A DNA stretch of 64,000 nucleotides from a virus. The translations under genes were made by a program, and so were the position numbers. Where the stretch lies: positions 44,698 through 108,697 of the IMG/VR virus record IMGVR_UViG_3300010157_000040. One strand, 5' to 3'. The notes under the pieces were generated by a model. The model saw nothing but the letters and a program-made list of their open reading frames with translations. It searched no databases and was not told where the DNA came from. This document shows positions 12,369-46,297 of this stretch, piece after piece (positions within the stretch are counted from its first letter, which is position 1; every line of letters begins with the position of its first letter).

Positions 12369-12369
12369 C

Positions 12370-12416
12370 TAAACTTTTCAAGTTTATGTATTAAACTAAA
12401 ATTTATTATATTTATA
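12370..12416 (+). promoter_or_regulatory. Putative late promoter/operator: inverted repeat TAAACTT-ttc-AAGTTTA plus TATATTTATA
   Basis: Perfect 7-bp inverted repeat at 12370-12386 and TATATTTATA at 12407-12416; similar layout at 20525-20571. Confidence 0.55.
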
Positions 12417-12430
12417 ATAGAACTAATAAT

Positions 12431-23500: not shown

Positions 23501-23686
23501 GGTGATTATATGCAAACAATTAATTATCAAACTTGGAACCCAAATACAAATTCATATGATAATCAAACAGTAGTAGATAATTCAACTGTTTTTGGAGCAA
23601 ATTTGGAAAACAGTAGAGATGATTTTACACAATGGATAGATAATATGAAAATCCAGAATAAACTTATAGCCAATGGCAACTACTGA
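20591..23686 (+). CDS. Ejection/cargo protein
   Basis: 1031 aa, helical/coiled-coil, N-terminal YIPQFQPFQPD, no Cys seen; precedes the giant ejected proteins. Confidence 0.55.
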   Translation: MATYLQGVTDYIPQFQPFQPDLNFYSNILQTKQSQYDTNWKALNTMYSQYYNADLTRTENADKKDQYIKGIDFNLKRVSQLDLSLEQNVDQATQVFKPFYQDKGLMKDMAWTKNYNAAVGRAESLKTAYDDKQRGQYWATGVTELNYLKDEFKNTTSDKAMNFGNVSYTPYVNVSEKAQKIAKDFGNMETPSFSKDGKFILKTKNGEQLIEPLSKLFESRLGDDPSVQALYKTQAYVNRKDYAYSNAAQFNGDKNAAEMKYLETSFTLLKEKSTARYNALKENSQGYTDKIANLQKQVDDKTASPEIQKQLADLKMNKDINDKVLTRSEEEQKTLNGGQSSTATTTTGFVNPYGDLESLRWKVDNGMASTLMQKDLNESAQLFAYSNYKQDIEANPYAVLEEKNRFSMQQIAARNAGLERAVKLKVAGDAKNTLNAARIAAGTHYLDEETGQVVPYEAFQNIISEPSDQAHTDKLNLKETSKRINDVQAQTTGIPYLKNTVGLIQKLVTEHSMTQQEASAILGYDKNPNISLDSFSKKLDKYGVNWMRNEVGAKNLHQIEKEMTTWLGRNSEQSGLNSEQYQAYRKSAIRFDDYTKYLKEDHEWRKTTSFEVERELRKQGLHGADYLYDNGGNLRTREEFIDIMEKKGKIDSQESKHEIIVSKIDKLANEKHKLLEDRYNNGKHFKNGIEAQQALHKANDSELKAFDQEIIKLRHQLPENLRNGYEMGKIKGNMYDNYEALVNAAGKVYTSGRIKKPLPGMAQFGEMEGTGTFAPRVNTILVNPKGHGPTSVFAGEVFRDLDNNIDWGDNTKNRASFRGFNKGSWDNHSNGDLNSTFRQVYEAMRNEQNTAKSKMGNYKITVSPLAAGSINKVAIVIKPDLTWLKTQVYNVDKDGNQNSPGTISYEQFKNISTYGMNMITDAKNMTNSLYTTAYQSPLQSYVDHHEGGYVYTDPLNPNYNLTIQKGAKGGGDYMQTINYQTWNPNTNSYDNQTVVDNSTVFGANLENSRDDFTQWIDNMKIQNKLIANGNY

Positions 23687-29571: not shown

Positions 29572-32500
29572 ATGAAAATTACTTGTTCTTTAAAGCAGTC
29601 TCAAATTGAGAAACTGTATGCAAATATTTATGGGCACCTATTAGATAGTCAAAATAAAGGAAAAACTTTTGACTCTAAAGGATACATGATAAACTTATTT
29701 AATAAGATTGCTACAAAAGGTGATGTAGAAACGGCTGCAAAATTTTTACAACAAGTACCTACATTAATTGGTACTGCATCATTTAGACCATCTTTAGAAG
29801 AATTAGGTTTGCCAACAGATATGTTAAGACCTTTAATTAAAAGTTTTAAGAATGAAGATGCGGGTTTATTAAATGTAGTTAGTTATTTTAATCCTACATT
29901 AAATATTAATGTACAACAAGAATTAATTGATCAATCAGAAAAGAATGCATTTGTTGTACCAGAAAATGATTCTGAAACTGTTACTAAAGATCTGTTTGAT
30001 TATTTACCCTATGACTCTTTTTCTACTACATTTCAAGAATTCTTAACTGTAGATCCAGATAAAGCTGCAACAAATGAACAACTTGATGTAAATAGAAAAG
30101 TTATTTATGCAACACTTAAAGAACTTAAAAAAACTATTGGAACTACACCTAATTTAGGTAAACTTGTATATCAAAATGTTACTTTAAAATTAGTACCACA
30201 AAGACTAGATACTGCTGATACAGATGAGTTAGATAAAACAACAAAAAGATTACAAAATAGATCAGAATTTTTAAATAGAAAAGGTGTAGCTCAACCTAAT
30301 GTAACTAAACCAAATGAAATTTTCTTAATGATAATTTCAAATGAAATAGGTGAACCAGTTTATTTTAATGATGAAGGATCAATTACTACAAAAGAAGAAG
30401 GTGGTAAACAAGTTTATCAATTCTTAAGAGATGCAAGAAAAAAAGGTGATAGATATACAGTAACTGATATTTATGGAAAAGATAATCAGATACTTAATGC
30501 AAAAGAACTTGCAACATTAATGGATAAAAATTCAAAAATTAAATTAAGTAAAGAAGAATTTAATAATTTAGTTGCAGAATTAGATAAAAAACAACAAGAA
30601 GAATTTAAACAGTTATATAACTTTAGACAACGTTTGATTAAAGGTGAAATACCATTAATTAATATAACAGATGTAAGTCAAGGTATAAAAGAATATACCA
30701 ATAAAGAAATTACATTAAGTAATATAAGAAGATATCCGTTTGGTACAGATCATGTATTTAAAACAATACAAACTATTAAGACTCCAAGAGGTCAGTTTAA
30801 AAAAGGTGAAGCAACAATTACTATAGAGGGTCAAGAATTTAAAATTGATAGACCAAACTTGACAGATGATTTAATTAAAAAAATTGCAACAGTATTAACT
30901 GATAAAAATTTAAGTAAAGAACTAAGATATAGATTTTATTCACAATTTTTAGCAAATAAAGCATCTCTTGCAACAAGAAAACATACTTTATCTTATACTC
31001 CTGTTACAGATGAATTGATTTTTTCTTATTCAAAAAAAACATTTCAAGAAGGATACGATAGTAAGTTTACTGATGTTATGTTAGATAGTGATACAGCATA
31101 CACAGAAATATATGATGCATTAAAATTAGCTTCAGGTAAAAATGGTAATTACTTTTCTGCTAAAATGACTTATAATAAAGACTTGTTAAACATTAATGGT
31201 TATCAAGATTATAATTTAGATACAAAAGAATTATCAGAAGATTTTATTCCTTATATTCCATTGCTTGAAACTCTTCCTAATACAAAGGTAGATGCTAGTG
31301 TAACTAGTAATCCAAGATTTTTTAATTCATATATGAAGTTTGCACTTCCAAATGAGTTTACACAACAATTAGAAGAAGCACAAAACAGTTCAAATGATGC
31401 AGAAAAAGATGATTTCTTTGAAACTTTATCCGCACCTTCTGATGTAGAAAATTTAATGCCCAGTGAAAAGAAAAAAGTTATTGTTGATACACTTAAGTCT
31501 GATAAGAAAATAGTAGGAACAATTACTAAACCTTTTGGTTCAGATACTAAATGGAAATTTATTACTGCAAAAGGAACAACAATAGATTTTTATTCTCATA
31601 CAAATAATATTACTGATTTAGATACAGTTGCTCAAGCTAATTTAAACTTACTTCCAGAAGTTGACTTTAATGGAAAAGTAATGACAGATGTTGTTGAGGT
31701 TAGAATAGGAGATAAAGTAATTGGTTATGTAAGAGAAACAGATGACTTTGATAAAGTAAATATTGTTGAACCAACAAAGTCTCAAGAAGAAATTGATGCA
31801 GAAATAGAAGAAAAAATTAATCCTAAAAACACAAGTCATCCATCTGAAGATAGTTTATTTTTTACTAGGTCGGGTGATTTAACTAATAATGTAACAGAAT
31901 CTGAAATTAAAGATGCTCATACATGGTGGGCTAAGTCAGATTTAACTAAACATATTGGTTTTAAAGAAGCAGTAAACATAGTTAATTCTGATGCATATGC
32001 AAGATTTATGACTTATGGTGCTAGACTTAACGGTACATTAGGTACTATAGAAATTGCAAATAAAGGTTCTATGGTTGATGTTTATCATGAAGCATGGCAC
32101 GGATTTTCACAATTGTATTTAACTAGAAAACAAAAAACCTCTTTATACAAAGAAGTAAGAAGAAAATTAGGAAGAAATAAAAAATTATCATTCTTTGAAA
32201 TAGAAGAAATAATTGCTGAAGAATTTAGAGAGTATGCAAAAAATCCTAAACCTAAACCTGATTCACCAGTAAGAAATACTATATTTAGAATAATATTAAA
32301 CTTTTTAAGAGAAGTTTTTGGAAAAGGTAGTGTTACAAATGTTAGAGATATTAAAAAAGTTCAAGAATTATTTGATAATTTATATTTAAACAAAAATCTT
32401 AATAAGTATACTCCTACTATTGATAATGTAATGTTTGATTTATTATATAGAAATAGTGGTATTGTTAAACCAGGAACATTAACTGATCAAGTACTAGATA

Positions 32501-35500
32501 GACAAGATTCTAATCTAATTAAAGATAGTATGGATTCAATAATTTCTGATTTGGTTGATTCTGATAATGGTATCAAAGGAAATAAATCAGGAACTTTGGC
32601 TATACTGCTAGATAGTAGAAATAGAGATGAGTTATATAAACTAATTAATATTAATTTAAATAAATCTTTAAGTCATTATAAATCTACATTAGAAAAACTT
32701 GATGATAAAGATGAAAATAAAAATACTAAAGAAGTTTTAGAAAATAGAGTAAGAATACTTCAAGCAGCTGTAGATAATTATGGAAATTCAAAAAGTGGTG
32801 TTATACAATATCATATAGAAAATAGTACATTTGATTTAATTAAACAAAAATATACAACTCTTGAATTAGATGAAGAAGGTAATTTGTTTGATCCAAATAA
32901 TACTGACAATACAGAAAGATATGGTGATACTAAAGTTGGAGAAAAGTCTTTAATTCAGTTAGCTGGAAAAGAAACACTTTATATTCTTAAAAGTTTACAT
33001 GAAGTTGTTGATGGTAAAATAAAGTATAATGAATTAGGTTATAAAAAATTAGCTCCTTTTAGAACTACCTGGAATAATACTGTAAGAGCAATCAGTGGTC
33101 TACAAGATCCACAAGAAATGTATGATAAATTAGTTGAAGAAAGCAAAGTCAGTCCTGAGTTTAAACAGTTGACAGAAAATAAATTAGCTAATCCGTTAAA
33201 TTCTAAAAATCCAAATGAACAAAAAGCAATAACTTCATTTTGGCAAGATTTTAACAAACCAAGAGTTCCATATATTCAGTTTACAATTTTTAAAAAGACA
33301 GATGAAAATCCAAAGGGATCTTCTGAAGTTACTGAAGCATCAATTGAAACTAAAACTGTTATAAATAAATTTCAAAATAAATTTAAAGCAGATATTAATA
33401 GTGTATATATTAAAAGAATAGGTAAAGAAAACATTCCAACACTTGACATATCTGAGATAGTAAAAGATTTTTCTGATGCAAATGGTAATTTAGATATATC
33501 AAAATCCTATGAGTTTGCAAGAGCTATTGGTTTTTATTTAGATGACATAGGTATAATCAAAAATACATTAAAGAAAGATGAATCTACCATACAACAGTTT
33601 GGTTTACCATACATCTTTAATGCTGTTAAAGTACTTAACCGTAAAGATAAACTACCAGTAAAGAGTGCTTTAGTAAGTAAATGGATTAGTAAATTTAAAA
33701 CTAATCCAATTAAAACATTAACAGAGGCTATACCTGTAGGTGTTATTGGTCCTGATATATTTAAACAAAAAAATAAGGTAGAAGCATTAGCAAGACTACA
33801 AGGAAGATATGGTGTTGACTCATCTAATTTTGGTGTATTTAATGCTGAAAGAAACTTAGTATTTGAACACATAGACAATAACAGTATTACTAAGATAGTT
33901 TATGCATTAAACAATGCTGAAAAATTATCAGATCTTTGGGAATCAGATAAATTTAATTATACTAAGTTTTTAGACCCAAAAATAAATAGTTTTACAAATA
34001 GATCTGGTATACTAAGATCATTATTTGACATGAGAGATCCAAAGAAATCTAAATTAAAAGATAGAGATCTTGAATTATTTATGAATTCTGGTACACAAGT
34101 AGAACAATCTGCAGTAGGTTTAAATACTACATCTTTAGATGTTAATAGTAAAATGCTTCAGGAAATGAATACAATGCTTAAAGGTGGTGTTCAAGAATTT
34201 ATGAGACATGCATCTAAGTCATCTTCATTTGGAGCAAGAATTAATGGAGGTATAGTTGGTAAACCTGGTAAACAAGGTAGTGATGAAAGGTTATGGGTAG
34301 ATATAGATATGTTTGCAAAAAATATAGCACATGACTATGCATTTACAGCACATCTTTTACCATACATGGAATCTGAAGCAGAAAGAATATTTAAGTGTAA
34401 TAGTAATCTTGATACATTTAAAAATTATGTAGGTTATAATAGAGAACTTAGTAATGGTAGAATTGCTGGTCAAGAGTTTACTGCATTTGATAATGTATTA
34501 ACTGATAATACTAAAGAACTTATTTATGCTGCAATTAATAAAGCAATAAAAAATAAAGAGTTGTTTAATCTTGGAACTTTTTTAAAAAATAATCCAACTT
34601 TATTATCTACAGTTAAAAAAGAAACTGCCTTTTATTTTGCAGATCAAACTCGTGAAAATTTATATAAGTTAACAACAAGTAATTATATCAGTCCTAGTCT
34701 TAGAGAAAAATTAAATGTGTTTAATATTACTGAAGATGCACAAGATAAAGTTTTAGTTGATGCTTATACATATAATGCATGGATTCATAATTTTGAAACA
34801 GCAAGTTTATTTTATGGTGACATTGTACAATACAATCATGATAAAGAGGAGATGCATAAAAGAAATACTGGAGCAACTTCTGGTGGTAGAACTTTTAGAA
34901 CTGATATATCTGCACAAAACTTTGCAAATGGATATTTAGCTGATACATCATATGCAAAAAAACATAATGCCACTCCTATTAGTTATAATGGTACTTTTAA
35001 TACTGCTATCATAAAAGATATTGAAAGAACTTCTATATACTATCCAGATTTTGAAAAAGCATTAAGAGAAGATTATACTAAAAGATTTTCTAAAGTACTT
35101 GATAAAAGTAAAGTAGCTGCAGCTGTAGAAGATAGAGTTGCAAAAGAAATTAAGAAGTATAAAGATATGGAAGAAGGTGATGGTCAAGGTTGGATCACAT
35201 TTGATGCATATAGATTATTAAAAACAAATGAAAATAGTTGGTCTAATGCACAAGAAGTATTGTTCCAAAAAATAAATAACAATCAACCAATAGAAGCAAC
35301 AGAAATAACTGAAATGTTTCCTGTTTATAAATTGCAAAACTTTGGTCACTTAGCAAATACAGATTTGTTAGCACCAATAAATGCAATGCATAAATTTGCA
35401 CTTATGCCACTTATTCCTAGTATGATAGAAGGTACTGATTTAGAATCTTTACATCAACAAATGATGTCTAAGAACATTCAGTATTTAACATTTCAAACTG

Positions 35501-38500
35501 GTTCTAAAGTAGGTAGTGTAACTTCTAATGGTAAAGCAGATCAAATATATGATGCTAACTCTGACGAAAAGATTTTAAAAACAGATATTAAATTTACTCC
35601 AAATACTATTTATGTTGATTATTTAAAAAATGTAACTGCTGTTCCATCTAAATTTAAAAACAAAACAGTTTTTTCAACACAGTTGAGAAAATTAATTCTT
35701 AGTAATTTATATGAAAATGGTAAAATCATTAATTCTGATAATACAAAAGCAATAAAAGAATATGAAGCTGCAGTAGATCATCATAGTAATTTATTAAAAT
35801 TAGAATTACTTAATGAAATAGGATACGAGCATGATGTAAAGAATAATAAATATTATGGTAATGTAGATAAATTTTTAGATGTGGTTCAAGCTGAACTTGA
35901 AAAAAGAGATTTACCAGAACATTTAATTCAAATGGTTGGTCTTACTAGAGACAAGTCTTTAAGAACAGATTTATCATTACATTTAAAAGCAGATGAGATA
36001 GAAAAAATTCTTGTTGCTTTAGTTGAAAAAAGATTAATTAAACAAAAAGTTAAAGGTGAAGCATTAGTTCAGGTATCCAGTGCAATGACTAATGGTATAT
36101 GGGATCAAAAAACTAAATTTAAAAATGCTACAGTAGCTGATGTTAAAAAATTCATGGGTAGTAATAACTTACCTTTCTATCATCAAGATGCATCTGGTAA
36201 TACATTAGCTATGAAAGTTGCTATTGCTTTACAAGGTGACTTTGTTAACTTACTTAAACTTAATCATTTAGATGGTCAACCTATAGGTACAAGAGCTAGA
36301 TTAAATGATATGATTAAAGAAGACAAGTGGTTAGACTTAAATGATAATAGAAAGTCTGTTACTTTATCTGCTGTAAGAATACCAGTACAAGGATTAAACT
36401 CTATGGAGTTTATGGAAGTATATGAATTTTTAGATCCAGCTGCAGGAAATATTATTATTCCTCCATCTGAAATTGTTGCTAAATCAGGAGCTGACTTTGA
36501 TGTTGATAAGTTAACTACATTTATGCCACACATAGATTACAAAGGTAATTATGTGAAAGGTCAATTAAGTAATGAGGAGTTACTTAAAAAAGTTAATAAA
36601 CTTAATGAAACTCCAGAAGGTAAAAAACTTGCAACTAATTTAATTAAGTCTCAAAAATCCGCATCTGAAAATAATTTAATAGCAACAATCAGAGGTATAC
36701 TTGAACTAAAAGATAATTTTGCTAGTTTAATTAGACCAAATGATACATATTTATTAAAAGAAATAGCCGATGAGTTACAAGATCATGTAACAGATTACAA
36801 TAGATTTGGAAATGTACATAATGAAAATAGAACAGGACTTAAAAATCAAAAAGTTATTAGTCCTACTAGAGTATTAGAAGCAGGTTATAATTTACATAAA
36901 CATGAAGCCAACATGGTTGGTAAGAGAGTGTTAGGTATTATTGCTGTAGAAAATGCATTACATCCTATCTTTAATGCTATTGGTGCAGCAATGCCTAAAA
37001 CATATAAAGAGTCAAGTTATGTAGGTAACAAGTATATTGATGGTAAAATTGACTATGATACTAGAATACTACTACCTACAAATATGACAAAGGATGGTAG
37101 AATTTCATTGTCTGGAACTGAAACTTCTGATGGTATGGATAACATAGGAGAATTATTTTCTCAAATGTTAAATGGTGCTGTGGATGTTGAAAAAGATGCA
37201 TGGATATTCTTTATTCAAGGTAACTATGAATTAATTCCAATGCTTACATTTTTGTTTAAAGCAGGTGTACCTAAAGAACAAGCAATTATGTTTGTATCAC
37301 AACCACTTGTTAGAGAATATGCAAAACAACAAAGAGAAGTAAAGAGTGCATATGCTACACTTACTGGTGTTGTACCTGAAGATTATAATCCAATGTTTGC
37401 TAAATATACAGCAGCACAAAATACATTAGAAGGTAAGAATCTTAACAGTGTAATTAATAAAGCTACTGCATTAAAAGTTAAAGATGTTTTAAGTTTACAA
37501 GGTGATACAGAAATAAAGTTTGCAGAAAATAAAGTATATAAAACTAAAAAAGCAAGTACTATACTAAAAGAAATTAAAGATGGTACTATAGATCCAACAA
37601 AAATTACCTATATGGTAAATAATGAAACTGGTGAAAAAATATTCAAACCAATTGGAAAACATCCTGTATCTAATGCAAACTTTTATTATACAGCTAAAGC
37701 AGCAACAGAAAATAAAAAAGAATTTTCATTAGAAGAATTAAAGCAAAATGTAGTTGATAATGATAGTACTTCACCACAAGCAATTGCAGCTTTCTTACAT
37801 TTATTAGAAATTGAAAAGTCATCAAAAGGATTCAGTGTATTAAAAATGCAAGCAAATCCGGATACTAAAACATCTAAGACAATTCAAGAAATAATTAAAA
37901 GAAACTTATCACTTGAAGATATTAAAGAATTATCAAAATTAGAACCAGGATTAGTAGACAAATTACAAAAGTCAATACTAGGTACTTTCTTTGATAACAA
38001 ACTAATTAAAGATTTAGTAGTACCAGTATTCCAATTAAGAAATAATGATGTTGTTACTTCAACTATTTTAAAATTACTAGATAAAAACTCAAATTCAATA
38101 GCAGAAAAGTTTGGTAAAGGTCAAGATGGTGCTAGTCAGTTTATTACACAGTTTAAAAATGCAATTCCTAATTACATTTATCAAAACTATATGTCTCACT
38201 TTATTGATAAAGCAGGTAATTTAACTGATACTCCAACTGAATTTAATGAACTTACCGTAAAAAATGTAGCGGGAACTACTAATGGAGCAAAAGTAGTAGG
38301 TAATAATATATATGTAGATACGGAAAGACTAAGAAATGAATTTGAAAATAAACTGTACACAAGAGAAAGTACACTTGAAGGTAACTATAAAGAATCTGGA
38401 TTAAGAGGATTTAAACTTCAAGATGATATGTTCCCTAACTTATCTTCTTATGTAAGATATGTATATGAAAGAGAATATCAAAGACATTTATATCCAATTG

Positions 38501-40395
38501 ATTCTTTAAAAACTAATAAAGATTATTTAAAGTTTAAATCAGATTTTAAATCTGCAGGTGTAGATGAAAGTAAATTAACTGATGTAGCATATGAAGCATA
38601 TCTAAATCAAAGAGCATTAATAAATGCATTTAATAGAGAAGCAATTATGGGTATGGAAGATTATTCATATACTGATATGGTTTTAAATATGGTAGAAGAA
38701 TTTTCTAACTTAAAACATAAGTATCCAATTGTTAATCAATTCACTAAACCTAAAGTTGTTACAAGAAATATACACGGTCAGGTACTTAAAGAAAATTATG
38801 TTTTAACATTAAATGATGTTAAAGAATTAAAAGATGGTCAACTTGCAGAAGTATATTACCAAAATATAAAAGATCTTGGAGATGAAACTGTAAAGAAAGT
38901 ATCTAATATAGAAGATAATAAAAGAATTAGTAAATTATTTAGTCTGTTGCCTATGATGATGATATATCAACATGGTTTAGGATATAGTAAATATGGATTT
39001 AATGAAGCATTACCATATAATGATTTTATAGGTGTAATGCAAACAGCAGCAGATATTTATGAAGATAAAATTCTTAATGAACAATCTTTATATTCTATTT
39101 ATAATTTACTAATGAATGAGAATAATGCAAACTTTAAAGATTATGTTGCACCAAGAGCTAAAGATTATAAAAATCCAGTTGCTAGTGAATTCTCAAATCC
39201 TGTAGTAACAACTGTTGAAGAATTAGATGATAGCATGAGAGCATTATTAATGAAAAATGCTGTTCCTGTAGTACAACCATCTACTAATGTTGAATATAAT
39301 TATAATCCATCAAATGTATCTGAGCAAACAAGAGATGATTATAAACAATATGTATTAAAACAACTTGGAAAACCTGAAATTAAAGCTAAAGCAAATGCAT
39401 TTGATTTTATATATCCAGATTTAACAATTACAATATCTAAAGATGGTTCTCTTAGTTACACAAATGTTAATCAAAAAATTGTAGATTTATCTAAAACAGA
39501 TTCTGGATATGATCTTAAATTTATGGTTGGTTTAAATAAATTAGCTGAAGAGTTTACTCAACCATCTGCTAGTGTTGAAACAGAAGTAGTAATTCCAGGT
39601 GTTGAAATTAAAAGAAATGTTATAACTAAAGAAGAACAACTTGAGTTATTTAATATTCTTAAACCTTATATTGAAAAACAAGGAGCCACAACCAATAAAG
39701 CTACTAGTGCAAATGTAATGATTGGATTAGGTTTAAGATGGGATTATAAATCAAATAATCCTAATTATAAAGCTATTGAAATAAAAAATATTATTGTACC
39801 TGGAAGTAGTGCTAAGTATGGTTATTATGAAGTATCTATTAATGGTCAACCATTAGGTCCTATTAATCCTAGAATTAAAACATTAATGTCTAAAGCTACT
39901 GGTATAGATGCTACTGATTATGATGGGGCTATAATAAATCTTTATACAGATAAAACTTTTATAAGTGCTCATAATGATGTAGATGAAGCTGCTGATGCTA
40001 TTGGATATCCTGTACTTGTTTTAAATATAGGTGGAAGTGGCAATTTTAGTGTACAACAAACTGGAAAATATGAACCTACTCCTCTTAATTCTGGAGACTC
40101 ATATATTTTTGGAATAAATGGAGAAAACAGAAAAGTAATGCATAGAACTTTTCCTTCTAAACAAGATGGATTTTTACCTGCAATAACTACAGCAATAGAT
40201 GGAGAAACTTATTCAAAAGGAAGTTATAGATTATCTATTACTTTAAGAAGAGTAAAAAATCTAAAACCAGGAATGCCTACAGTACCAGCTAAAGTTGTTA
40301 CTCAACCATCTACTAGTGAACCTACAGATATAGTTAAAACAATTAGTCCTAATGGTAAACCACCAATTGAAAGAACATCATCAGATTGTGAATAA
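29572..40395 (+). CDS. Virion-packaged RNA polymerase (crAss-like/phi14:2 gp66 type) with zincin domain and C-terminal AlkB-like domain
   Basis: Catalytic RIPVQG...GADFDVDKL (DxDxD near 36493) and DGQG motif; zincin HEAWH...EEIIAEEF (about 32080-32230); 2OG-Fe(II) motifs INLY, HND, H, RLSITLR (about 39590-40255). Confidence 0.88.
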   Translation: MKITCSLKQSQIEKLYANIYGHLLDSQNKGKTFDSKGYMINLFNKIATKGDVETAAKFLQQVPTLIGTASFRPSLEELGLPTDMLRPLIKSFKNEDAGLLNVVSYFNPTLNINVQQELIDQSEKNAFVVPENDSETVTKDLFDYLPYDSFSTTFQEFLTVDPDKAATNEQLDVNRKVIYATLKELKKTIGTTPNLGKLVYQNVTLKLVPQRLDTADTDELDKTTKRLQNRSEFLNRKGVAQPNVTKPNEIFLMIISNEIGEPVYFNDEGSITTKEEGGKQVYQFLRDARKKGDRYTVTDIYGKDNQILNAKELATLMDKNSKIKLSKEEFNNLVAELDKKQQEEFKQLYNFRQRLIKGEIPLINITDVSQGIKEYTNKEITLSNIRRYPFGTDHVFKTIQTIKTPRGQFKKGEATITIEGQEFKIDRPNLTDDLIKKIATVLTDKNLSKELRYRFYSQFLANKASLATRKHTLSYTPVTDELIFSYSKKTFQEGYDSKFTDVMLDSDTAYTEIYDALKLASGKNGNYFSAKMTYNKDLLNINGYQDYNLDTKELSEDFIPYIPLLETLPNTKVDASVTSNPRFFNSYMKFALPNEFTQQLEEAQNSSNDAEKDDFFETLSAPSDVENLMPSEKKKVIVDTLKSDKKIVGTITKPFGSDTKWKFITAKGTTIDFYSHTNNITDLDTVAQANLNLLPEVDFNGKVMTDVVEVRIGDKVIGYVRETDDFDKVNIVEPTKSQEEIDAEIEEKINPKNTSHPSEDSLFFTRSGDLTNNVTESEIKDAHTWWAKSDLTKHIGFKEAVNIVNSDAYARFMTYGARLNGTLGTIEIANKGSMVDVYHEAWHGFSQLYLTRKQKTSLYKEVRRKLGRNKKLSFFEIEEIIAEEFREYAKNPKPKPDSPVRNTIFRIILNFLREVFGKGSVTNVRDIKKVQELFDNLYLNKNLNKYTPTIDNVMFDLLYRNSGIVKPGTLTDQVLDRQDSNLIKDSMDSIISDLVDSDNGIKGNKSGTLAILLDSRNRDELYKLININLNKSLSHYKSTLEKLDDKDENKNTKEVLENRVRILQAAVDNYGNSKSGVIQYHIENSTFDLIKQKYTTLELDEEGNLFDPNNTDNTERYGDTKVGEKSLIQLAGKETLYILKSLHEVVDGKIKYNELGYKKLAPFRTTWNNTVRAISGLQDPQEMYDKLVEESKVSPEFKQLTENKLANPLNSKNPNEQKAITSFWQDFNKPRVPYIQFTIFKKTDENPKGSSEVTEASIETKTVINKFQNKFKADINSVYIKRIGKENIPTLDISEIVKDFSDANGNLDISKSYEFARAIGFYLDDIGIIKNTLKKDESTIQQFGLPYIFNAVKVLNRKDKLPVKSALVSKWISKFKTNPIKTLTEAIPVGVIGPDIFKQKNKVEALARLQGRYGVDSSNFGVFNAERNLVFEHIDNNSITKIVYALNNAEKLSDLWESDKFNYTKFLDPKINSFTNRSGILRSLFDMRDPKKSKLKDRDLELFMNSGTQVEQSAVGLNTTSLDVNSKMLQEMNTMLKGGVQEFMRHASKSSSFGARINGGIVGKPGKQGSDERLWVDIDMFAKNIAHDYAFTAHLLPYMESEAERIFKCNSNLDTFKNYVGYNRELSNGRIAGQEFTAFDNVLTDNTKELIYAAINKAIKNKELFNLGTFLKNNPTLLSTVKKETAFYFADQTRENLYKLTTSNYISPSLREKLNVFNITEDAQDKVLVDAYTYNAWIHNFETASLFYGDIVQYNHDKEEMHKRNTGATSGGRTFRTDISAQNFANGYLADTSYAKKHNATPISYNGTFNTAIIKDIERTSIYYPDFEKALREDYTKRFSKVLDKSKVAAAVEDRVAKEIKKYKDMEEGDGQGWITFDAYRLLKTNENSWSNAQEVLFQKINNNQPIEATEITEMFPVYKLQNFGHLANTDLLAPINAMHKFALMPLIPSMIEGTDLESLHQQMMSKNIQYLTFQTGSKVGSVTSNGKADQIYDANSDEKILKTDIKFTPNTIYVDYLKNVTAVPSKFKNKTVFSTQLRKLILSNLYENGKIINSDNTKAIKEYEAAVDHHSNLLKLELLNEIGYEHDVKNNKYYGNVDKFLDVVQAELEKRDLPEHLIQMVGLTRDKSLRTDLSLHLKADEIEKILVALVEKRLIKQKVKGEALVQVSSAMTNGIWDQKTKFKNATVADVKKFMGSNNLPFYHQDASGNTLAMKVAIALQGDFVNLLKLNHLDGQPIGTRARLNDMIKEDKWLDLNDNRKSVTLSAVRIPVQGLNSMEFMEVYEFLDPAAGNIIIPPSEIVAKSGADFDVDKLTTFMPHIDYKGNYVKGQLSNEELLKKVNKLNETPEGKKLATNLIKSQKSASENNLIATIRGILELKDNFASLIRPNDTYLLKEIADELQDHVTDYNRFGNVHNENRTGLKNQKVISPTRVLEAGYNLHKHEANMVGKRVLGIIAVENALHPIFNAIGAAMPKTYKESSYVGNKYIDGKIDYDTRILLPTNMTKDGRISLSGTETSDGMDNIGELFSQMLNGAVDVEKDAWIFFIQGNYELIPMLTFLFKAGVPKEQAIMFVSQPLVREYAKQQREVKSAYATLTGVVPEDYNPMFAKYTAAQNTLEGKNLNSVINKATALKVKDVLSLQGDTEIKFAENKVYKTKKASTILKEIKDGTIDPTKITYMVNNETGEKIFKPIGKHPVSNANFYYTAKAATENKKEFSLEELKQNVVDNDSTSPQAIAAFLHLLEIEKSSKGFSVLKMQANPDTKTSKTIQEIIKRNLSLEDIKELSKLEPGLVDKLQKSILGTFFDNKLIKDLVVPVFQLRNNDVVTSTILKLLDKNSNSIAEKFGKGQDGASQFITQFKNAIPNYIYQNYMSHFIDKAGNLTDTPTEFNELTVKNVAGTTNGAKVVGNNIYVDTERLRNEFENKLYTRESTLEGNYKESGLRGFKLQDDMFPNLSSYVRYVYEREYQRHLYPIDSLKTNKDYLKFKSDFKSAGVDESKLTDVAYEAYLNQRALINAFNREAIMGMEDYSYTDMVLNMVEEFSNLKHKYPIVNQFTKPKVVTRNIHGQVLKENYVLTLNDVKELKDGQLAEVYYQNIKDLGDETVKKVSNIEDNKRISKLFSLLPMMMIYQHGLGYSKYGFNEALPYNDFIGVMQTAADIYEDKILNEQSLYSIYNLLMNENNANFKDYVAPRAKDYKNPVASEFSNPVVTTVEELDDSMRALLMKNAVPVVQPSTNVEYNYNPSNVSEQTRDDYKQYVLKQLGKPEIKAKANAFDFIYPDLTITISKDGSLSYTNVNQKIVDLSKTDSGYDLKFMVGLNKLAEEFTQPSASVETEVVIPGVEIKRNVITKEEQLELFNILKPYIEKQGATTNKATSANVMIGLGLRWDYKSNNPNYKAIEIKNIIVPGSSAKYGYYEVSINGQPLGPINPRIKTLMSKATGIDATDYDGAIINLYTDKTFISAHNDVDEAADAIGYPVLVLNIGGSGNFSVQQTGKYEPTPLNSGDSYIFGINGENRKVMHRTFPSKQDGFLPAITTAIDGETYSKGSYRLSITLRRVKNLKPGMPTVPAKVVTQPSTSEPTDIVKTISPNGKPPIERTSSDCE
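39274..40318 (+). repeat. Three in-frame direct repeats CAACCATCT[AG]CTA[AG]TG, cores starting at 39274, 39559 and 40303
   Basis: GTACAACCATCTACTAATGTTGAA / ACTCAACCATCTGCTAGTGTTGAA / ACTCAACCATCTACTAGTGAA; spacings 285 and 744 bp, both multiples of 3. Confidence 0.85.
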
Positions 40396-40426: not shown

Positions 40427-43400
40427 ATGCCTTGTCCTATTAAAATAAAAGAATTTTTAACTAATCAAGTTTTTGAAAAAGGTCAAGCAGGTCTTTTTAT
40501 GAGAAAAGAACTTGCTGATAAATTAGCTGCAGATATTAATGCTGAGTATGATGCTAAAGTTATAAAATTTACTAAGTACTTTGATCACTTAGAAAGAGAA
40601 ATTACTATTCCTCAATCTTTAATTGATGAGTATTATGATGCAGAACTTCAAGAAGAAATTAAAGAAATGAAATCTGCAGAAAGAGAAGCAGAAGAACAAC
40701 AACTACAAGAAGATATAAGAGCAGGTAAAGTATTAGTAGAAAATCTTGATGTAGATACAGATAATAATGATTATAACTTTAATGAAAACTTTACTGAAGA
40801 CTATTACAAAACTAAAGTAATAGAAAATAGAGACTTACAAATTGCTCAAAAACTTGGTGAAAAATATGCTAAAGCATTTAATGTTTCATATTCTATAATT
40901 ACACCAGGAGAAGCAGCAATCTTATTAGAAGATAGTCCAACACCATTTACATCTGATGTATCTTCATTTTTTTATGATAATGCTATTTACTTTATAGAAG
41001 GTAAATTTACTGCAGCATCTGTATTACATGAATTTGCTCACCCATTAGTTAAAGGTATAGCATTTCAAAATCCAAAGTTATTTCAAAATTTGTTTTCACA
41101 GCTCACTAGTACTAATACTGGAATTGATGCATTAACAAAAGTAAAAGATAAGTATCCGGAACTTGATGAGGATTCAGATAGATTTAAAGAAGAAGCAATT
41201 GTTACAGCCATGGAAATGGATGCTGCAATGGAAATTGAAAATGTTAAAAATAATGACAGTGCATTTGCTAAGTTTATACAAAACTTAATTTTTGCAATTA
41301 AAAAAGTTATTAAAGCTTTAACAGGAAATATTAATCTTAAAAACTTATCTACATCAACTACCAGAGATGAGTTAGTTAATATGATGCTTAATGAAGATTT
41401 TCAAATAGAAGATTTAAAATATCAGTTATCATTATTTGCTGAATTTAAAAAAGATACGGAAGATTATATTAAAGAACTTAAAGATACTACACCTAAAAAA
41501 TTAGTTGAAGCAATTAATAAGTTTCATAATGAAATGACTTTCCAAATTGGTGTACTTAAAAATTCTCCTAAAAAACTTAGAGAAGAACTAAAAGGAAAAG
41601 AAGGATTAGATGTATTACGTAATATAAAAGATTATGTAAAAGGTTATAAAACTGCAGGAGAAGATTTAACTGAAGAAGAATTAGAAGAATTATTTAAAAA
41701 TTTAGGTGAAGAACAAGATGACTTAAGAGTACGTTCACTTGCATTTATAAATAGTTTAACTGAGTTAGAAGTTTTTGCAAGAAGAGTACAAACTTTACTA
41801 TCTGATATGAGAAAGTCAGATAAGTTTATGACTTATGATGGTAATGGTAAAATTCAATATTTTAAACAATTCATGGAGAGAGAAGTAAAATTCTTGAATG
41901 AAGTAAGAAGATCACTTGCATTAGATCCTTCTAATGAATTAGTTAAAAAAATATTAGCAATTAAAGCAGTTGTTGAAGATAATGTTGAAAATGCTAAAGA
42001 AATGACATTTGAATTTGTTAAAGGGTTTTTTATGGAAAACAGTATAACAATGCAAAAAAATGTTAAAGAAAAATTAGAAGAAACAATTGATAGAGTTTTA
42101 AAAGCTGAAAAATTTACCCAGGATGACATTGATGTATTTAAAGATGATTTATTTAATAAGTTAGATATAGATAATATTAAAGGAATAAAACAATCAGATT
42201 TTTTATTACCAAGTATTCCTAAAGGAGCAAAATATATTTTATCAGAAATTGGTAATTATAATTCAAACAAAATTACTGAAGAAACAGTAGATAATTATTT
42301 AAGAGGTCATGTAAGAGATTTAGGTATGATGGGATCACTTGCAACTCCTATGGGTAATGTTAATGATATGTTTGGATCTTTTGTAAATTTTATGAAATCT
42401 AAATTATCAAATGCTGAAGTTAAAAGTTTAGATAAACAATATAAGATAGCTGAAGAATTACAACCTTATTTAAATGCTGTTGGAATAAATCATAATGATA
42501 CTAAAGCTATTGCAGATTTAGTATTATTTATTGATACTGTACCAGATACAGATGAACATGGAAATTTTATTGAAAAACAAATCTATGCATATCTTGATAA
42601 ATTTCAAAACTGGAGAGCAGATAGAGGTAAGTTAGAATTTGATTTAGAAAAAGCTAGAACTTTAGGAAAGAAAGATGAAATAAAAGCAGCTATGCAAGCT
42701 CGGTGGGAGTTTGATGAAAAATACATGCAACGGAAGTATGTAGATGCTGTTTATGATGTTAAAAAGATGTGGAGACAAGATAATGTTTTATTAAATCCTG
42801 CAACAGGAAAAGAAATAAAAATATCTGCAAGTACTTCTATTGAAGCATATATGGAAAGACAATCTGCATTAGATGATTTGGCAACATTTAATAGTTCAAA
42901 CTTTACTGAATTAGATGATCTTAATGAATTTACTCCTTCAAAAGCTGCTAAAATTAAATATGATGAATTGTTTAACATGTTTAATTTAAACGGTGAATAT
43001 AAACAAGGTAAAGAATTAGAAAAAGTATTAATAAGAAGAGCATACAGAGAACAGTCTAGAAAATTTAATGAGAGCACTACTAATATTGATAAAGTACAAA
43101 AAGATTTAGATCATTTTGTTAATGTAACTTTAGCTGGTATGGGTATAACTAAAGATTCTGATTCTGCAAAATATGAATCTGAGATTGCTAAGTTTACTAG
43201 TAAAAACTTTAAGATAGCATATACTAATGAATACTTTCAAGAAAGAAATGCAACATTAGATGCTATTAAAAAAATAAATGAAAAAACAAAAGGGTCAGAT
43301 ATTTCTAAACAGTTAGCTAATTTATATGAACAAAGATATAATTTAGTAAATAGAGTAACTGATAAAGATGGAGAACCTAATGGTTTAATGTTAGGTCAAG

Positions 43401-46297
43401 ATCAAATCAAAAGACTTAAAAGTATTGAAGAAGAAATTGTTGCAGCACAAGAACAGTTTGATAGAAAAACTGGTTTATCTAAAGAAGATTCAAATAGATT
43501 AAAATACTTTGAAGAAGAAATAATTGGTAAAGGTAAGTTTAATGAAATGACACCTGAAGATAAAGCTGAATATCAAAATCTATCTAACAATAGAACAGCA
43601 TTTGGTTTGTCTGGTCAAGAAACAACTTATTTAAGAGGTTTATATAGAAAACTTAATGAACTTACTGATACACAAGCAACTGATTATTATATCACTGCAT
43701 TTAATAATGCATTAGGTGATGCTGATGTTCCAATTGCAACAATAGAAACTGCTGATAACTGGATTAATTCAAATGATGTAATGAAAGCAAAAGCTGAAAG
43801 TTCTGCATTTGCTGAATGGTTTGATAGAAATCATTATACTAGACCAAGTTTTGATCAAGAAACCGGAGAGTACATGAATAAGTACTATAGGTTAAAAGCA
43901 TGGACTATAAGTAAACCAAGTGATTCTTCATTTTATAAAAAAACAGAATTAGTTGATCCTACTACTGGTGATAAACTTACAGTAGATGGAGTTCCTATTG
44001 CTAAATATTCATATACTAAAATTAAAGATGAATTTTTTACAGGATATGATGCAAAGACTAAAACTATTAATAAAAAAGTAGGAGTGCATGTAGATAACAG
44101 AGGTAACTTTTTACCTAAGACATTTGCTATTGGAGATGTGAATGATAAATACATGAATAAAAAATATTTTGAACTTCAAAAAGCAAACAATGCACAATAT
44201 AAATTACTTGAAAAATTAAAACAAAATATATTAGATGTACAAGAAGATTCACAATTTGCATCAAGAATGTATTTAGATTTTGCTAGATTTAGAATTGATA
44301 CTAATCTTGAATATTTACAAAAAGGTAAGCTTCAAGAAAGTATAAAAGATAAGAAAAATATTGTATTACAAAATCTAAAGGCTGCTGTTACTGCAGCTAA
44401 AGATGACCCGGAAAGAAGTTTGAATTTTGATAATAAATATTTATTAGTTCCAACAGACTTACAAGGTAAACCAATTGCTAAAGTTCCTATTAGAGGATTA
44501 TTTAATTTAGATATTAATACTGTTTCTACAGATGTGTTTAGATCAATGTTTAATTATATGTATTCAATTGATCAACAAAATGCATTAATAGAAAATGAAC
44601 CATTAGCACAAGCACTACTTAATGTATATAGAGATCCAGATAATGCAATTGATAAATTAGATAGAGCAAGTAAAACTCTTGCAAAAATAGATGATAAAGC
44701 ATCTTCTTTCTTAAAAAGATCTACTAATAAAAGATTACAGTTAGCTGAAGATTTTATTAACAGAACTTTTTATGGTCAAATTACTAGTGAATTTCAACAA
44801 GAAAATGTAATGACAACTAAAATTGCAAAAGGTTTAGTTGGTCAAGCAAGTAGAGCATTTTATGCATTAAACTTACAATCCTCAGTAAAAAATAAATGGG
44901 GAATGACAGTGCAGAAACTTATATATTCTGCAGGTGGAAAATATATTGACTATCCTTCAATGGCAAGAGGTCAAATATCTGCAACAAAAGCAATGTTTGA
45001 ATATGCTGCTAAAGGTGCATATGCAAAAGGAATGAAAAGTTTACCAATGCAAATGATGGATAAGTTTGATATGAATCCAGGAAAAACTAAATCTGAGTTT
45101 GGTAAATCTACTACAAGAACAGCTGTAAAAGATTTATTAGATGGTGCATGGATGTATTCTGATAGAAAATTATTAGAACTAGAAGGAGCATTAGAACTTG
45201 GATTTGCAGTTATGGAAAAACAACTTGTTGATCAAGTACAAGATGATGGTTCAGTAACACAAATAAGATATGCAGATGCATTTGAAACTAATGCAGAAGG
45301 TAAAATGGTGTTAAAGAAAGGTATTGATCCTGAATGGGGAACAGAAGAACTTACTCATACTGTACAAGTAGGGGACACATTAGATTCTATTGCTAAGAAA
45401 TACCATATGACAGCAGAAGAATTAAAATCAAAAAATAAAATTACAGAACTTCCGGAACTAGGTGAAGATATAACAATTTCAACAAATAAGAAATTTAATG
45501 ATGTTAAACTAATCATAGCATCAGTAAATAAAAAACTGAATGGTACAATGACCAACATTGATGGACCAGCAGCTGAAAAGTATTTGTTATATAATCTATT
45601 TAGTTTTTCAAGAAAATATGCCACAGGTATGTTCTTGCAAAGATTTCAAATGGATACTTCTAAAGGTAATAAAGGTAATGAAACATGGGATTGGGACACT
45701 AATGATACAACTAAAGGAACATACATAGAATTCTTACAACTATCAGGTAAATTAATTAAAGGTTTTAGTACATACTGGCCAATTATGAAACCTTCAGAAA
45801 AAGCTGCTGCTAAACAAGTAATTATGGAAGGTATGTTATTATTTCTTATAGGAATGGTAATAACTTATTTATTTGGTTATGATCAAGGTGATGAAGATAG
45901 ATTTGCTAAAATTAAAGCACGTGAAGATAAATATGGTGCTGCAGGATTTATGGCAAACCATTTATTATATCAGTTAATGATGGTAAAGAAAGAAAATCAA
46001 TCTTTTATTCCACTTCCTGGAGTAGGTTTAAATGATTGGTTAAGTTTTGGTAAAGCAACTACAATTGTAATAGGTCCAACATTAGGTGTATATGGAAAAA
46101 TATTTGTTGATCTTGGTCAAATCTTAATTGGTAGTGATAAAGCTACATATAAACAAGATGTTGGTCCATATTCATGGCAAAAACAAGATGTATATAAGAT
46201 TTGGAATCACATAGGTTCATTATTTGGTGTATCAGGTAAGAATGTTAGTCCTTATTGGTCTATCAAGAAGAAAGAGATATTTGAAAACATGAATTAA
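40427..46297 (+). CDS. Giant ejection protein with zincin-like metallopeptidase motif, LysM domain and C-terminal hydrophobic helices
   Basis: VLHEFAHP...EEAIV (about 41020-41200); LysM HTVQVGDTLDSIAKKYHMTAEELKSKN...GEDITI (about 45355-45480); TM-like MLLFLIGMVITYLFG; starts MPCP. Confidence 0.72.
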   Translation: MPCPIKIKEFLTNQVFEKGQAGLFMRKELADKLAADINAEYDAKVIKFTKYFDHLEREITIPQSLIDEYYDAELQEEIKEMKSAEREAEEQQLQEDIRAGKVLVENLDVDTDNNDYNFNENFTEDYYKTKVIENRDLQIAQKLGEKYAKAFNVSYSIITPGEAAILLEDSPTPFTSDVSSFFYDNAIYFIEGKFTAASVLHEFAHPLVKGIAFQNPKLFQNLFSQLTSTNTGIDALTKVKDKYPELDEDSDRFKEEAIVTAMEMDAAMEIENVKNNDSAFAKFIQNLIFAIKKVIKALTGNINLKNLSTSTTRDELVNMMLNEDFQIEDLKYQLSLFAEFKKDTEDYIKELKDTTPKKLVEAINKFHNEMTFQIGVLKNSPKKLREELKGKEGLDVLRNIKDYVKGYKTAGEDLTEEELEELFKNLGEEQDDLRVRSLAFINSLTELEVFARRVQTLLSDMRKSDKFMTYDGNGKIQYFKQFMEREVKFLNEVRRSLALDPSNELVKKILAIKAVVEDNVENAKEMTFEFVKGFFMENSITMQKNVKEKLEETIDRVLKAEKFTQDDIDVFKDDLFNKLDIDNIKGIKQSDFLLPSIPKGAKYILSEIGNYNSNKITEETVDNYLRGHVRDLGMMGSLATPMGNVNDMFGSFVNFMKSKLSNAEVKSLDKQYKIAEELQPYLNAVGINHNDTKAIADLVLFIDTVPDTDEHGNFIEKQIYAYLDKFQNWRADRGKLEFDLEKARTLGKKDEIKAAMQARWEFDEKYMQRKYVDAVYDVKKMWRQDNVLLNPATGKEIKISASTSIEAYMERQSALDDLATFNSSNFTELDDLNEFTPSKAAKIKYDELFNMFNLNGEYKQGKELEKVLIRRAYREQSRKFNESTTNIDKVQKDLDHFVNVTLAGMGITKDSDSAKYESEIAKFTSKNFKIAYTNEYFQERNATLDAIKKINEKTKGSDISKQLANLYEQRYNLVNRVTDKDGEPNGLMLGQDQIKRLKSIEEEIVAAQEQFDRKTGLSKEDSNRLKYFEEEIIGKGKFNEMTPEDKAEYQNLSNNRTAFGLSGQETTYLRGLYRKLNELTDTQATDYYITAFNNALGDADVPIATIETADNWINSNDVMKAKAESSAFAEWFDRNHYTRPSFDQETGEYMNKYYRLKAWTISKPSDSSFYKKTELVDPTTGDKLTVDGVPIAKYSYTKIKDEFFTGYDAKTKTINKKVGVHVDNRGNFLPKTFAIGDVNDKYMNKKYFELQKANNAQYKLLEKLKQNILDVQEDSQFASRMYLDFARFRIDTNLEYLQKGKLQESIKDKKNIVLQNLKAAVTAAKDDPERSLNFDNKYLLVPTDLQGKPIAKVPIRGLFNLDINTVSTDVFRSMFNYMYSIDQQNALIENEPLAQALLNVYRDPDNAIDKLDRASKTLAKIDDKASSFLKRSTNKRLQLAEDFINRTFYGQITSEFQQENVMTTKIAKGLVGQASRAFYALNLQSSVKNKWGMTVQKLIYSAGGKYIDYPSMARGQISATKAMFEYAAKGAYAKGMKSLPMQMMDKFDMNPGKTKSEFGKSTTRTAVKDLLDGAWMYSDRKLLELEGALELGFAVMEKQLVDQVQDDGSVTQIRYADAFETNAEGKMVLKKGIDPEWGTEELTHTVQVGDTLDSIAKKYHMTAEELKSKNKITELPELGEDITISTNKKFNDVKLIIASVNKKLNGTMTNIDGPAAEKYLLYNLFSFSRKYATGMFLQRFQMDTSKGNKGNETWDWDTNDTTKGTYIEFLQLSGKLIKGFSTYWPIMKPSEKAAAKQVIMEGMLLFLIGMVITYLFGYDQGDEDRFAKIKAREDKYGAAGFMANHLLYQLMMVKKENQSFIPLPGVGLNDWLSFGKATTIVIGPTLGVYGKIFVDLGQILIGSDKATYKQDVGPYSWQKQDVYKIWNHIGSLFGVSGKNVSPYWSIKKKEIFENMN

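Follow-up and report, generated by a model that had tools for sequence, protein, structure and literature searches.

The giant RNA polymerases of crAss-like phages travel as virion cargo: phi14:2 gp66 and crAss001 gp47, gp49 and gp50 are ejected and refold, and in crAss001 the three polymerase-associated capsid-cargo proteins partly unfold for their exit and are thought to regain their fold in the cytoplasm. In phi14:2, a Cellulophaga phage, gp66 has gp65 and gp67 as neighbours; gp65 has been reported to contain a zincin-like protease, and in some phages the neighbouring proteins are fused into one huge polyprotein. Polyvalent proteins, as described by Iyer, Burroughs, Anand, de Souza and Aravind (2017, PMC5512222), unite unrelated enzymatic domains in one polypeptide, and an AlkB fold lies within the replicase polyproteins of plant RNA viruses (Flexiviridae, Closteroviridae and some potyvirids). 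In the window analysed here, a stretch of 64,000 nucleotides covering positions 44,698 to 108,697 of IMG/VR virus record IMGVR_UViG_3300010157_000040, the largest open reading frame (ORF; its product is called P0001 below) is predicted to join a crAss-type polymerase to an AlkB-type 2-oxoglutarate (2OG)/Fe(II) dioxygenase domain near its 3' end.

29572..40395, plus strand: giant ORF of P0001, 3,607 amino acids, with an N-terminal region carrying HExxH, a predicted crAss-type RNA polymerase core, a C-terminal cassette array and a conserved tail
39601..40248, plus strand: predicted AlkB-type 2OG/Fe(II) dioxygenase domain, amino acids 3344-3559 (PF13532, AlphaFold2 model, Foldseek, VIA-align)
39937..39945, plus strand: predicted 2OG-binding pair N3456-x-Y3458, equivalent to AlkB N120/Y122 (invariant in alignments A1 and A2; hhalign)
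39970..39987, plus strand: H3467-N-D3469-V-D3471-E3472, equivalent to H131, D133, D135 and E136, predicted iron ligands and base contacts (HMMER, hhalign)
40141..40143, plus strand: predicted distal iron ligand H3524, equivalent to AlkB H187 (invariant in 242/242 domains; hhalign)
40228..40248, plus strand: R3553-x5-R3559, equivalent to AlkB R204/R210, predicted to bind the 2OG carboxylate (hhalign, conservation)

Several lines of evidence identify amino acids 3342-3560 as a predicted intact AlkB-family domain with a double-stranded beta-helix fold that is closest to E. coli AlkB. The motifs PGVEIKRN (amino acid 3342, window position 39595), GAIINLY (3452), AHND (3466), VLNIG (3483), LNSGDSY (3505), VMHR (3522) and RLSITLR (3553) all lie in the frame of the giant ORF, and the AlkB-like Pfam family PF13532 (2OG-FeII_Oxy_2) matches amino acids 3344-3559 over its whole profile (about 1-194 of 194) with an E-value of 6.5e-12 when the whole protein is searched and of 1.1e-13 when the domain is excised (52.3 bits; range 46-52 bits, with a curated cut-off of 31.2 bits), a match far beyond chance. 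An AlphaFold2 model of the domain, built from an input of 39 related sequences, reaches a mean predicted local distance difference test score (pLDDT) of 95.4 and a predicted template-modelling (TM) score of 0.93. When this model is compared with the PDB by Foldseek, ranks 1-20 are all E. coli AlkB (E about 3e-12 to 1e-11, target TM 0.75-0.79), followed by OsALKBH1 and then by ALKBH6, 2, 1, 5, 3 and 8, and VIA-align gives E. coli AlkB a Z-score of 23.0 with a root-mean-square deviation (rmsd) of 2.1 Å over 188-190 of ~201 residues, OsALKBH1 a Z of 21.7 and ALKBH2/3/5 only ~15. Since the VIA-align match spans E. coli AlkB residues 13-215, it includes the nucleotide-recognition lid. The single domain sequence finds only weak phmmer matches in the PDB (OsALKBH1 at 0.013), and PHROGs hold no family for either the giant protein or its AlkB domain.

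Profile-profile alignment by hhalign (probability 93.6%, E 2e-7) pairs N3456/Y3458 with N120/Y122 of the E. coli enzyme, H3467/D3469 with H131/D133, D3471/E3472 with D135/E136, H3524 with H187, R3553/R3559 with R204/R210 and one lid tyrosine with Y76, so that all iron and 2OG ligands and the base-contact residues equivalent to D135/E136 appear to be in place; a conserved LRW motif is also present in the domain alignments, the W69 region of AlkB falling outside the hhalign alignment. In the model the HxD...H residues should come together in three dimensions, as follows from the residue-by-residue alignment on H131/D133/H187 and the close superposition. The iron triad H3467, D3469 and H3524 is invariant in 242/242 homologous domains, among which E3472 is kept in 241/242, D3471 in 162/242, R3559 in 241/242 and R3553 in 206/242, and the AlkB domain remains ~57% identical among homologues whose RNA polymerase core is merely 21-65% identical. 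A triad without exceptions, in a domain better conserved than the polymerase that carries it, argues for selection on the active site. The likeness to E. coli AlkB (PDB 3BI3, 3KHC, 2FD8, 3I3M) thus extends over nearly the whole enzyme, lid included, with identical residues at N120/Y122, H131/D133/H187, D135/E136, R204/R210 and Y76; the two differ in that overall sequence identity is ~20%, in that the phage lid between its Trp and Tyr-Gly-Tyr motifs reads as ~18 residues longer, and in that E. coli AlkB is a free-standing inducible repair protein whereas the phage domain is an in-frame module of a 3,607-residue protein.

The carrier is, by homology, a crAss-type giant virion RNA polymerase of the gp66 family.

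34969..38271, plus strand: predicted RNA polymerase core, amino acids ~1800-2900 (tblastn to crAss-like records; phmmer to PDB 6VR4)
36493..36507, plus strand: DFDVD, predicted catalytic metal-binding motif, amino acids 2308-2312, aligned with DFDID of gp66
32086..32100, plus strand: HEAWH, zincin-like HExxH motif, amino acids 839-843 (HE(A/S)(W/F)H kept in 176/179 aligned homologues)

Amino acids 1700-2900 match PDB 6VR4, the DNA-dependent RNA polymerase gp66 of phi14:2, at a phmmer E-value of 6.3e-19, with SGADFDVDKL aligned on TGSDFDIDKM; 6VR4 is found with the excised core only, the whole 3,607-residue protein returning nothing from the PDB. A tblastn search with the core recovers 91 crAss-like phage records, including phi14:2 g066 at 1e-16 and the 'putative RNAP catalytic subunit' of crAss002. 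The HExxH motif fits the zincin-like protease reported in gp65 and the reported polyprotein fusion, a parallel drawn from sequence and by analogy: no Pfam or PHROG family matches a peptidase domain around it, and amino acids 601-1400 find no match among GenBank phages by tblastn, including none to phi14:2 gp65. The polymerase thus resembles that of phi14:2 in its homologous core, in the aligned DFDxD motif and in the place of its gene within a block of giant genes, and its N-terminal HExxH recalls gp65; unlike gp66 it continues at the C-terminus into a slot for cassettes and a conserved tail with a Cys, and neither phi14:2 nor any other of the 91 GenBank records with a matching polymerase has this AlkB domain. 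The initial annotation of this DNA had proposed an intact AlkB domain at 39590-40260, fused to a virion-packaged RNA polymerase. Profile match, confident model and in-frame motifs bear out the domain, the fold comparison returns the double-stranded beta-helix of AlkB, on which the HxD...H, N-x-Y and R-x5-R residues align one to one, and the partner is indeed a gp66-family homologue in the same frame; the location is right for the catalytic domain, the exchangeable DNA unit described next being slightly larger (39547-40318).

With an AlkB domain and an RNA polymerase core in one ORF, P0001 holds several unrelated enzymatic domains per polypeptide, and it is best described as a polyvalent virion protein sensu Iyer et al. 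2017. It shares with the proteins of that work (PMC5512222) the combination of unrelated enzymes, the zincin-like motif, probable delivery with the DNA and the occurrence of ART-PolyVal (PF18760) domains on related polymerases. It differs from them in two respects: AlkB, 2OGFeDO and dioxygenase go unmentioned in the main text of that paper, and in the phage described here the shuffling is visible in the DNA, as exchange or insertion/deletion exactly at linker repeats.

39274..39294, plus strand: linker repeat 1 (QPSTNVE, amino acids 3235-3241), sharing 90% identity with linker 2 (direct repeat family D8)
39286..39555, plus strand: cassette 1, a ~90-residue domain without assigned family, amino acids ~3239-3328, between two QPS linkers
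39556..39579, plus strand: linker repeat 2 (TQPSASVE), 5' boundary of the AlkB cassette (repeat families D1, D2 and D8)
39547..40318, plus strand: AlkB cassette as exchanged DNA block, by nucleotide identity to loci L003 and L004
40300..40317, plus strand: linker repeat 3 (TQPSTS), 3' boundary of the AlkB cassette (repeats D1 and D2)
40318..40395, plus strand: conserved C-terminal tail (EPTDIVKTISPNGKPPIERTSSDCE) with penultimate Cys3606 and the stop codon, kept directly after the linker in the cassette-less homologue P0271

The three linker copies (39274, 39556 and 40300) delimit cassette 1 and the AlkB domain, and comparison with relatives reveals both the absence of this array and its transfer. 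P0271, a sister protein of 3,264 amino acids, is 94.6% identical to P0001 over amino acids 1-3241 and then runs straight into the last 37 residues; it lacks ~340 amino acids, namely cassette 1 and AlkB, with the junction within a QPST linker where the alignment to P0001 ends at amino acid 3241. Two further loci share the AlkB segment as a block of DNA: the window is 96.9% identical in nucleotides to L003 over 39547-40318 and 94.4% identical to L004 over 39554-40315, whereas the flanking giant genes are only 67-71% and 71-76% identical, respectively. In the three-way alignment the sequences are unalignable 5' of linker 2, ~97% identical from linker 2 on and collapse again right after linker 3; identity switches on at ACTCAACCATCT(A/G)CTAGTG, which codes for TQPS(T/A)S, and is lost again where the second copy of this repeat ends. 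The block must be a recent exchange, because selection at the protein level cannot hold synonymous sites at 97% identity. At greater distances, too, the domain and its carrier are uncoupled: the AlkB domain of P0002 is 96% identical to that of the window on a polymerase whose match is only 28% identical, polymerases 60-66% identical to P0001 carry an AlkB subtype that is only ~31% identical, and overall AlkB identity fails to follow that of the polymerase (Spearman 0.16). These comparisons show the AlkB domain to be an optional, laterally exchanged in-frame cassette that is gained, lost and swapped by recombination at linker-encoding repeats, a property that the initial annotation did not recognise; the slot for optional cassettes lies between the polymerase body and the short Cys-bearing tail.

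The same comparisons show that cassette 1 moves as well: P0296 carries a 93% identical copy together with an RNA polymerase core of 66% identity and an AlkB of another subtype (31%), and P0271 has none; the cassette matches no Pfam family and no named Atlas family, and three clear BLAST relatives were found among the related proteins compared. The TQP[ST] linker is enriched ~20- to 40-fold beside AlkB relative to background; it occurs in 19 of 45 related loci, and its Thr codon is ACT in 30 of 32 cases, against a background usage of 49%. We considered it as a universal joint and rejected that idea: only 16-20% of giant homologues have it beside AlkB, which makes it one joint type among several.

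The initial annotation had regarded the fusion as unfamiliar; it is not a rarity. Among metagenomic cluster representatives of 1,983-6,313 amino acids, the range to which the giant-protein search was limited, this AlkB clade was found, at 50-96% identity, in at least 157 giant proteins; of the best 120 of these 157, 102 can be matched to the polymerase core by BLAST, and DFDxD is present in most. The clade is also encoded on 45 IMG/VR contigs, and automatic names assigned by the Joint Genome Institute label some of the giants 'alkylated DNA repair dioxygenase AlkB'. When 1.84 billion representatives were searched exhaustively by phmmer, the domain had only 210 relatives; nearly all of the 150 listed are giant proteins or fragments of them, pointing to an AlkB clade specific to phage polyproteins. 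Searched by tblastn against 50,697 GenBank phage records the domain had no match, so the clade is absent from the cultured or deposited phages.

Viewed from the polymerase, for which at least 1,262 homologous giant proteins were found, the AlkB cassette is an accessory. How often such polymerases carry it, a survey suggested at the outset, now has an answer: among the 120 nearest polymerases it is present in 14 by BLAST and 17 by precomputed Pfam assignment (about 12-14%), alongside cassettes of NADAR (24/120), ART-PolyVal (PF18760; 5/120), DUF7831 (5/120) and superfamily 1 (SF1) helicase (2/120), with about 70 of the 120 having no recognised extra domain. NADAR or ART cassettes sometimes occur together with AlkB on one related polymerase. 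The arrangement varies further: AlkB is followed directly by an SF1 (RecD/Pif1-like) helicase in P0002 and by RNase H in P0009, DUF7831 precedes it in P0003, and in P0016, P0059, P0104 and P0108 it lies N-terminal to the polymerase core. Our literature search found no description of AlkB fused to the virion polymerase of a crAss-like or other DNA phage; new with respect to that literature are an AlkB domain carried as cargo by the virion polymerase of a DNA phage, the breadth of the fusion in environmental crAss-like phages, and DNA-level evidence of cassette exchange at linker repeats.

As to function, the account we consider the likeliest, though with no better than an even prospect of being right, is lesion repair, in which the AlkB module would rid incoming phage DNA, or early RNA, of alkyl lesions. 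Packaging, activity and substrate of the AlkB-polymerase we infer. The polypeptide would be packed in the capsid in the manner of phi14:2 gp66 and the crAss001 polymerase proteins, and its AlkB module would be inert there for lack of Fe(II), 2OG or O2 turnover; once the protein has been ejected ahead of or with the DNA and has refolded in the cytoplasm, the module would take up host Fe(II) and 2OG and oxidatively clear single-stranded parts of the entering genome (the transcription bubble), or nascent early RNA, of N-alkyl lesions of the 1-methyladenine/3-methylcytosine type. The tether to the polymerase would bring repair to the template ahead of all phage gene expression, so that lesions acquired outside or on entry would not block early transcription. 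1-Methyladenine and 3-methylcytosine in single-stranded DNA or RNA are the substrates to be expected given the closeness to E. coli AlkB and the preserved equivalents of D135/E136, and the SF1 helicase, RNase H and NADAR modules of homologues point to work on nucleic acids, the helicase and RNase H directly after AlkB fitting a nucleic-acid-processing kit.

Several observations weigh against repair. Only 12-14% of the nearest polymerases carry AlkB and the cassette is swapped and lost quickly; housekeeping repair is expected to be stable, such fast turnover being more typical of arms-race genes. The slot also takes NADAR and ART cassettes, enzymes with a known or suspected part in conflict, and this company together with the patchy distribution favours a role in conflict. 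The ~18-residue lid insertion means that substrate choice may differ from that of E. coli AlkB, and the module may be cut free at the linkers rather than act while tethered. The main uncertainty is therefore the origin of the lesion, which might be chemical damage in free virions or a modification inflicted by the host. In the latter case the injected AlkB would undo a modification with which the host deliberately marks the bases of phage DNA or RNA on entry, with the same chemistry as in repair and a lesion supplied by the immune system, possibly by a defence not yet described, much as NADAR acts against DarT. We hold this counter-defence role to be a tentative possibility. It would account for an accessory, patchy cassette (14-17 of the 120 nearest polymerases) that a 94.6% identical sister protein lacks, that has recently passed between divergent phages and whose subtype is incongruent with polymerase relatedness; NADAR (24/120) and ART-PolyVal (5/120) sit on related polymerases, sometimes with AlkB, and packing an enzyme in advance is most readily understood as an answer to an insult that precedes phage gene expression. 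Guilt by association is nonetheless a weak argument, and the strong conservation of the domain fits a fixed chemical lesion equally well. Our literature search found no defence that alkylates or N-methylates phage nucleic acid in an AlkB-reversible manner; to our knowledge no defence system makes such marks and no host toxin matches AlkB. This, together with the closeness to a classical repair enzyme, leads us to favour repair.

NADARs reverse the ADP-ribosylation of DNA by DarT, and phages use orphan NADARs against DarTG1 (PMC11825919, PMC11543638). They resemble the AlkB module as phage enzymes that reverse a base modification on phage DNA (PMC11825919), and in related phages NADAR cassettes share polymerases with AlkB; they differ in fold and in chemistry, a glycohydrolase standing against oxidative dealkylation, and T4-type NADARs are described as separate phage-encoded elements, not as modules of a virion polymerase (PMC11825919). 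A wider proposal, in which the QPS-type linkers are dedicated in-frame recombination joints by which environmental crAss-like phages reshuffle a set of injected enzymes and AlkB counters an undescribed alkylating or methylating defence, as the oxidative counterpart of the DarT-NADAR pair, we judge rather unlikely as a whole.

It is improbable in our estimation that the target is instead the host, with AlkB acting early on host tRNA, rRNA or mRNA or stripping protective host DNA methylation so that the cell is reprogrammed or crippled as infection starts. The tRNA and mRNA enzymes ALKBH8, ALKBH5 and ALKBH1 are among the structural matches, the ART cassettes of related polymerases are typical host-modifying enzymes, and Iyer and co-workers have suggested that the sporadic AlkB-like enzymes of jumbo phages might reset methyl marks in phage or host DNA (PMC7824862); the structure, however, is far nearer to E. 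coli AlkB (Z 23) than to erasers of RNA marks (Z ~15), the equivalents of D135/E136, which read 1mA/3mC, are kept, and a few injected copies are unlikely to erase genome-wide host marks in time. Resetting of the phage's own methyl marks is unlikely as well: the 91%-complete phage genome has no match to the DNA methyltransferase families PF02086, PF01555 and PF00145, the three main ones, and the lack of these common families argues against it. That the domain has no enzymatic role, and only spaces the structure, binds nucleic acid or was recently carried along by linker recombination, is very hard to credit: loss of the cassette does leave the polymerase intact in P0271 and the neighbouring cassette 1 has no recognisable function, but a triad preserved in 242/242 domains, R3559 in 241/242 and conservation far above that of the polymerase speak for a working enzyme.

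Should lesion repair be the correct account, the module would be a nucleic-acid dealkylase acting at the first moment of infection, before phage gene expression; it would add direct reversal of DNA or RNA damage to the tasks proposed for injected polyvalent proteins, and give the AlkB domains in the replicases of plant RNA viruses a counterpart among DNA phages. In the plant viruses, too, the AlkB fold is part of a viral polymerase or replicase polyprotein and often lies beside an SF1 helicase, which in some phage homologues comes right after AlkB, and their AlkB domains are among the structural matches in BFVD, with lower scores and 13-18% identity. The settings differ in that the plant virus proteins are translated in the host, whereas the phage has double-stranded DNA, a DNA-dependent RNA polymerase and a protein that is presumably packed beforehand. 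Sister phages with and without the module, and near-identical modules on divergent polymerases, constitute a natural experiment, and such pairs can show what the AlkB module is for. If the module works as proposed, the AlkB, NADAR and ART cassettes of related polymerases could point to host defences directed at incoming DNA, perhaps including an undescribed one. The linker-bounded slot before the conserved tail also shows how passenger domains may be loaded into a crAss-type capsid and is of practical interest for phage engineering.

Whatever cassette precedes it, the polymerase closes with a tail of the type (N/D)G(K/L)PxIxR(T/S)xxDC(E/Q), found in 74/282 giant homologues, which may be a packaging or anchoring signal. 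The 3,607-residue protein has only three Cys (positions 5, 1609 and 3606), and the same economy extends to the 282 giant homologues, which have a median of 2 Cys in ~3,700 amino acids; 267/282 have one within the last 6 residues and 196/282 one within the first 8. The adjoining giant proteins show a similar placement: the 1,965-residue protein upstream has Cys at 1143 and at the penultimate position 1964, and the 1,956-residue protein downstream has only Cys3. This pattern of terminal cysteines suggests head-to-tail disulfides or another form of covalent chaining, or else a terminal signal.

29563-29565, 29584-29586, 40387-40389 and 40433-40435: terminal Cys codons of the three giant ORFs in window positions 23673-46297

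The IMG/VR record that holds the window is 108,697 bp long, with an estimated completeness of 91% and a G+C content of ~28%. Its plus strand carries a tail-fibre gene followed by eight ORFs of 767-3,607 amino acids that fill window positions 4135-46297, and its minus strand a replication module with DNA polymerase, exonuclease, primase and a DnaB-like helicase; this gene order, with a giant-gene block between the tail module and a replication module on the opposite strand, is the layout of crAss-like phages.

~28437-28700, plus strand: PD-(D/E)XK nuclease domain (PF12705, E 5e-5), amino acids 1589-1676 of the ORF at 23673-29570
~45356-45442, plus strand: LysM motif (PF01476, E 4e-7), amino acids 1644-1672 of the ORF at 40427-46297
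~12181-12672 of G000:C1 (1399-1890 of L002), outside the window, plus strand: second AlkB-like gene (PF13532, E 1e-12)

The giant protein with the predicted PD-(D/E)XK domain is the one encoded directly upstream of the polymerase, and the peptidoglycan-binding LysM motif belongs to the giant protein downstream. The second AlkB-like gene of the same phage is free-standing and encodes 163 amino acids with HxD, the distal His and R-x5-R; the solved structures nearest to it are those of S. pombe Ofd2, ALKBH8 and ALKBH5, and as it has no pairwise similarity to the fused domain, we rejected the idea that the latter is its duplicate. Within the giant-gene block, the 767-residue protein (18224-20527) has four CxC pairs clustered at amino acids 449-503 (Cys 449/451, 469/471, 480/482 and 500/503) and is otherwise free of Cys, a cluster that may form a metal-binding knot.

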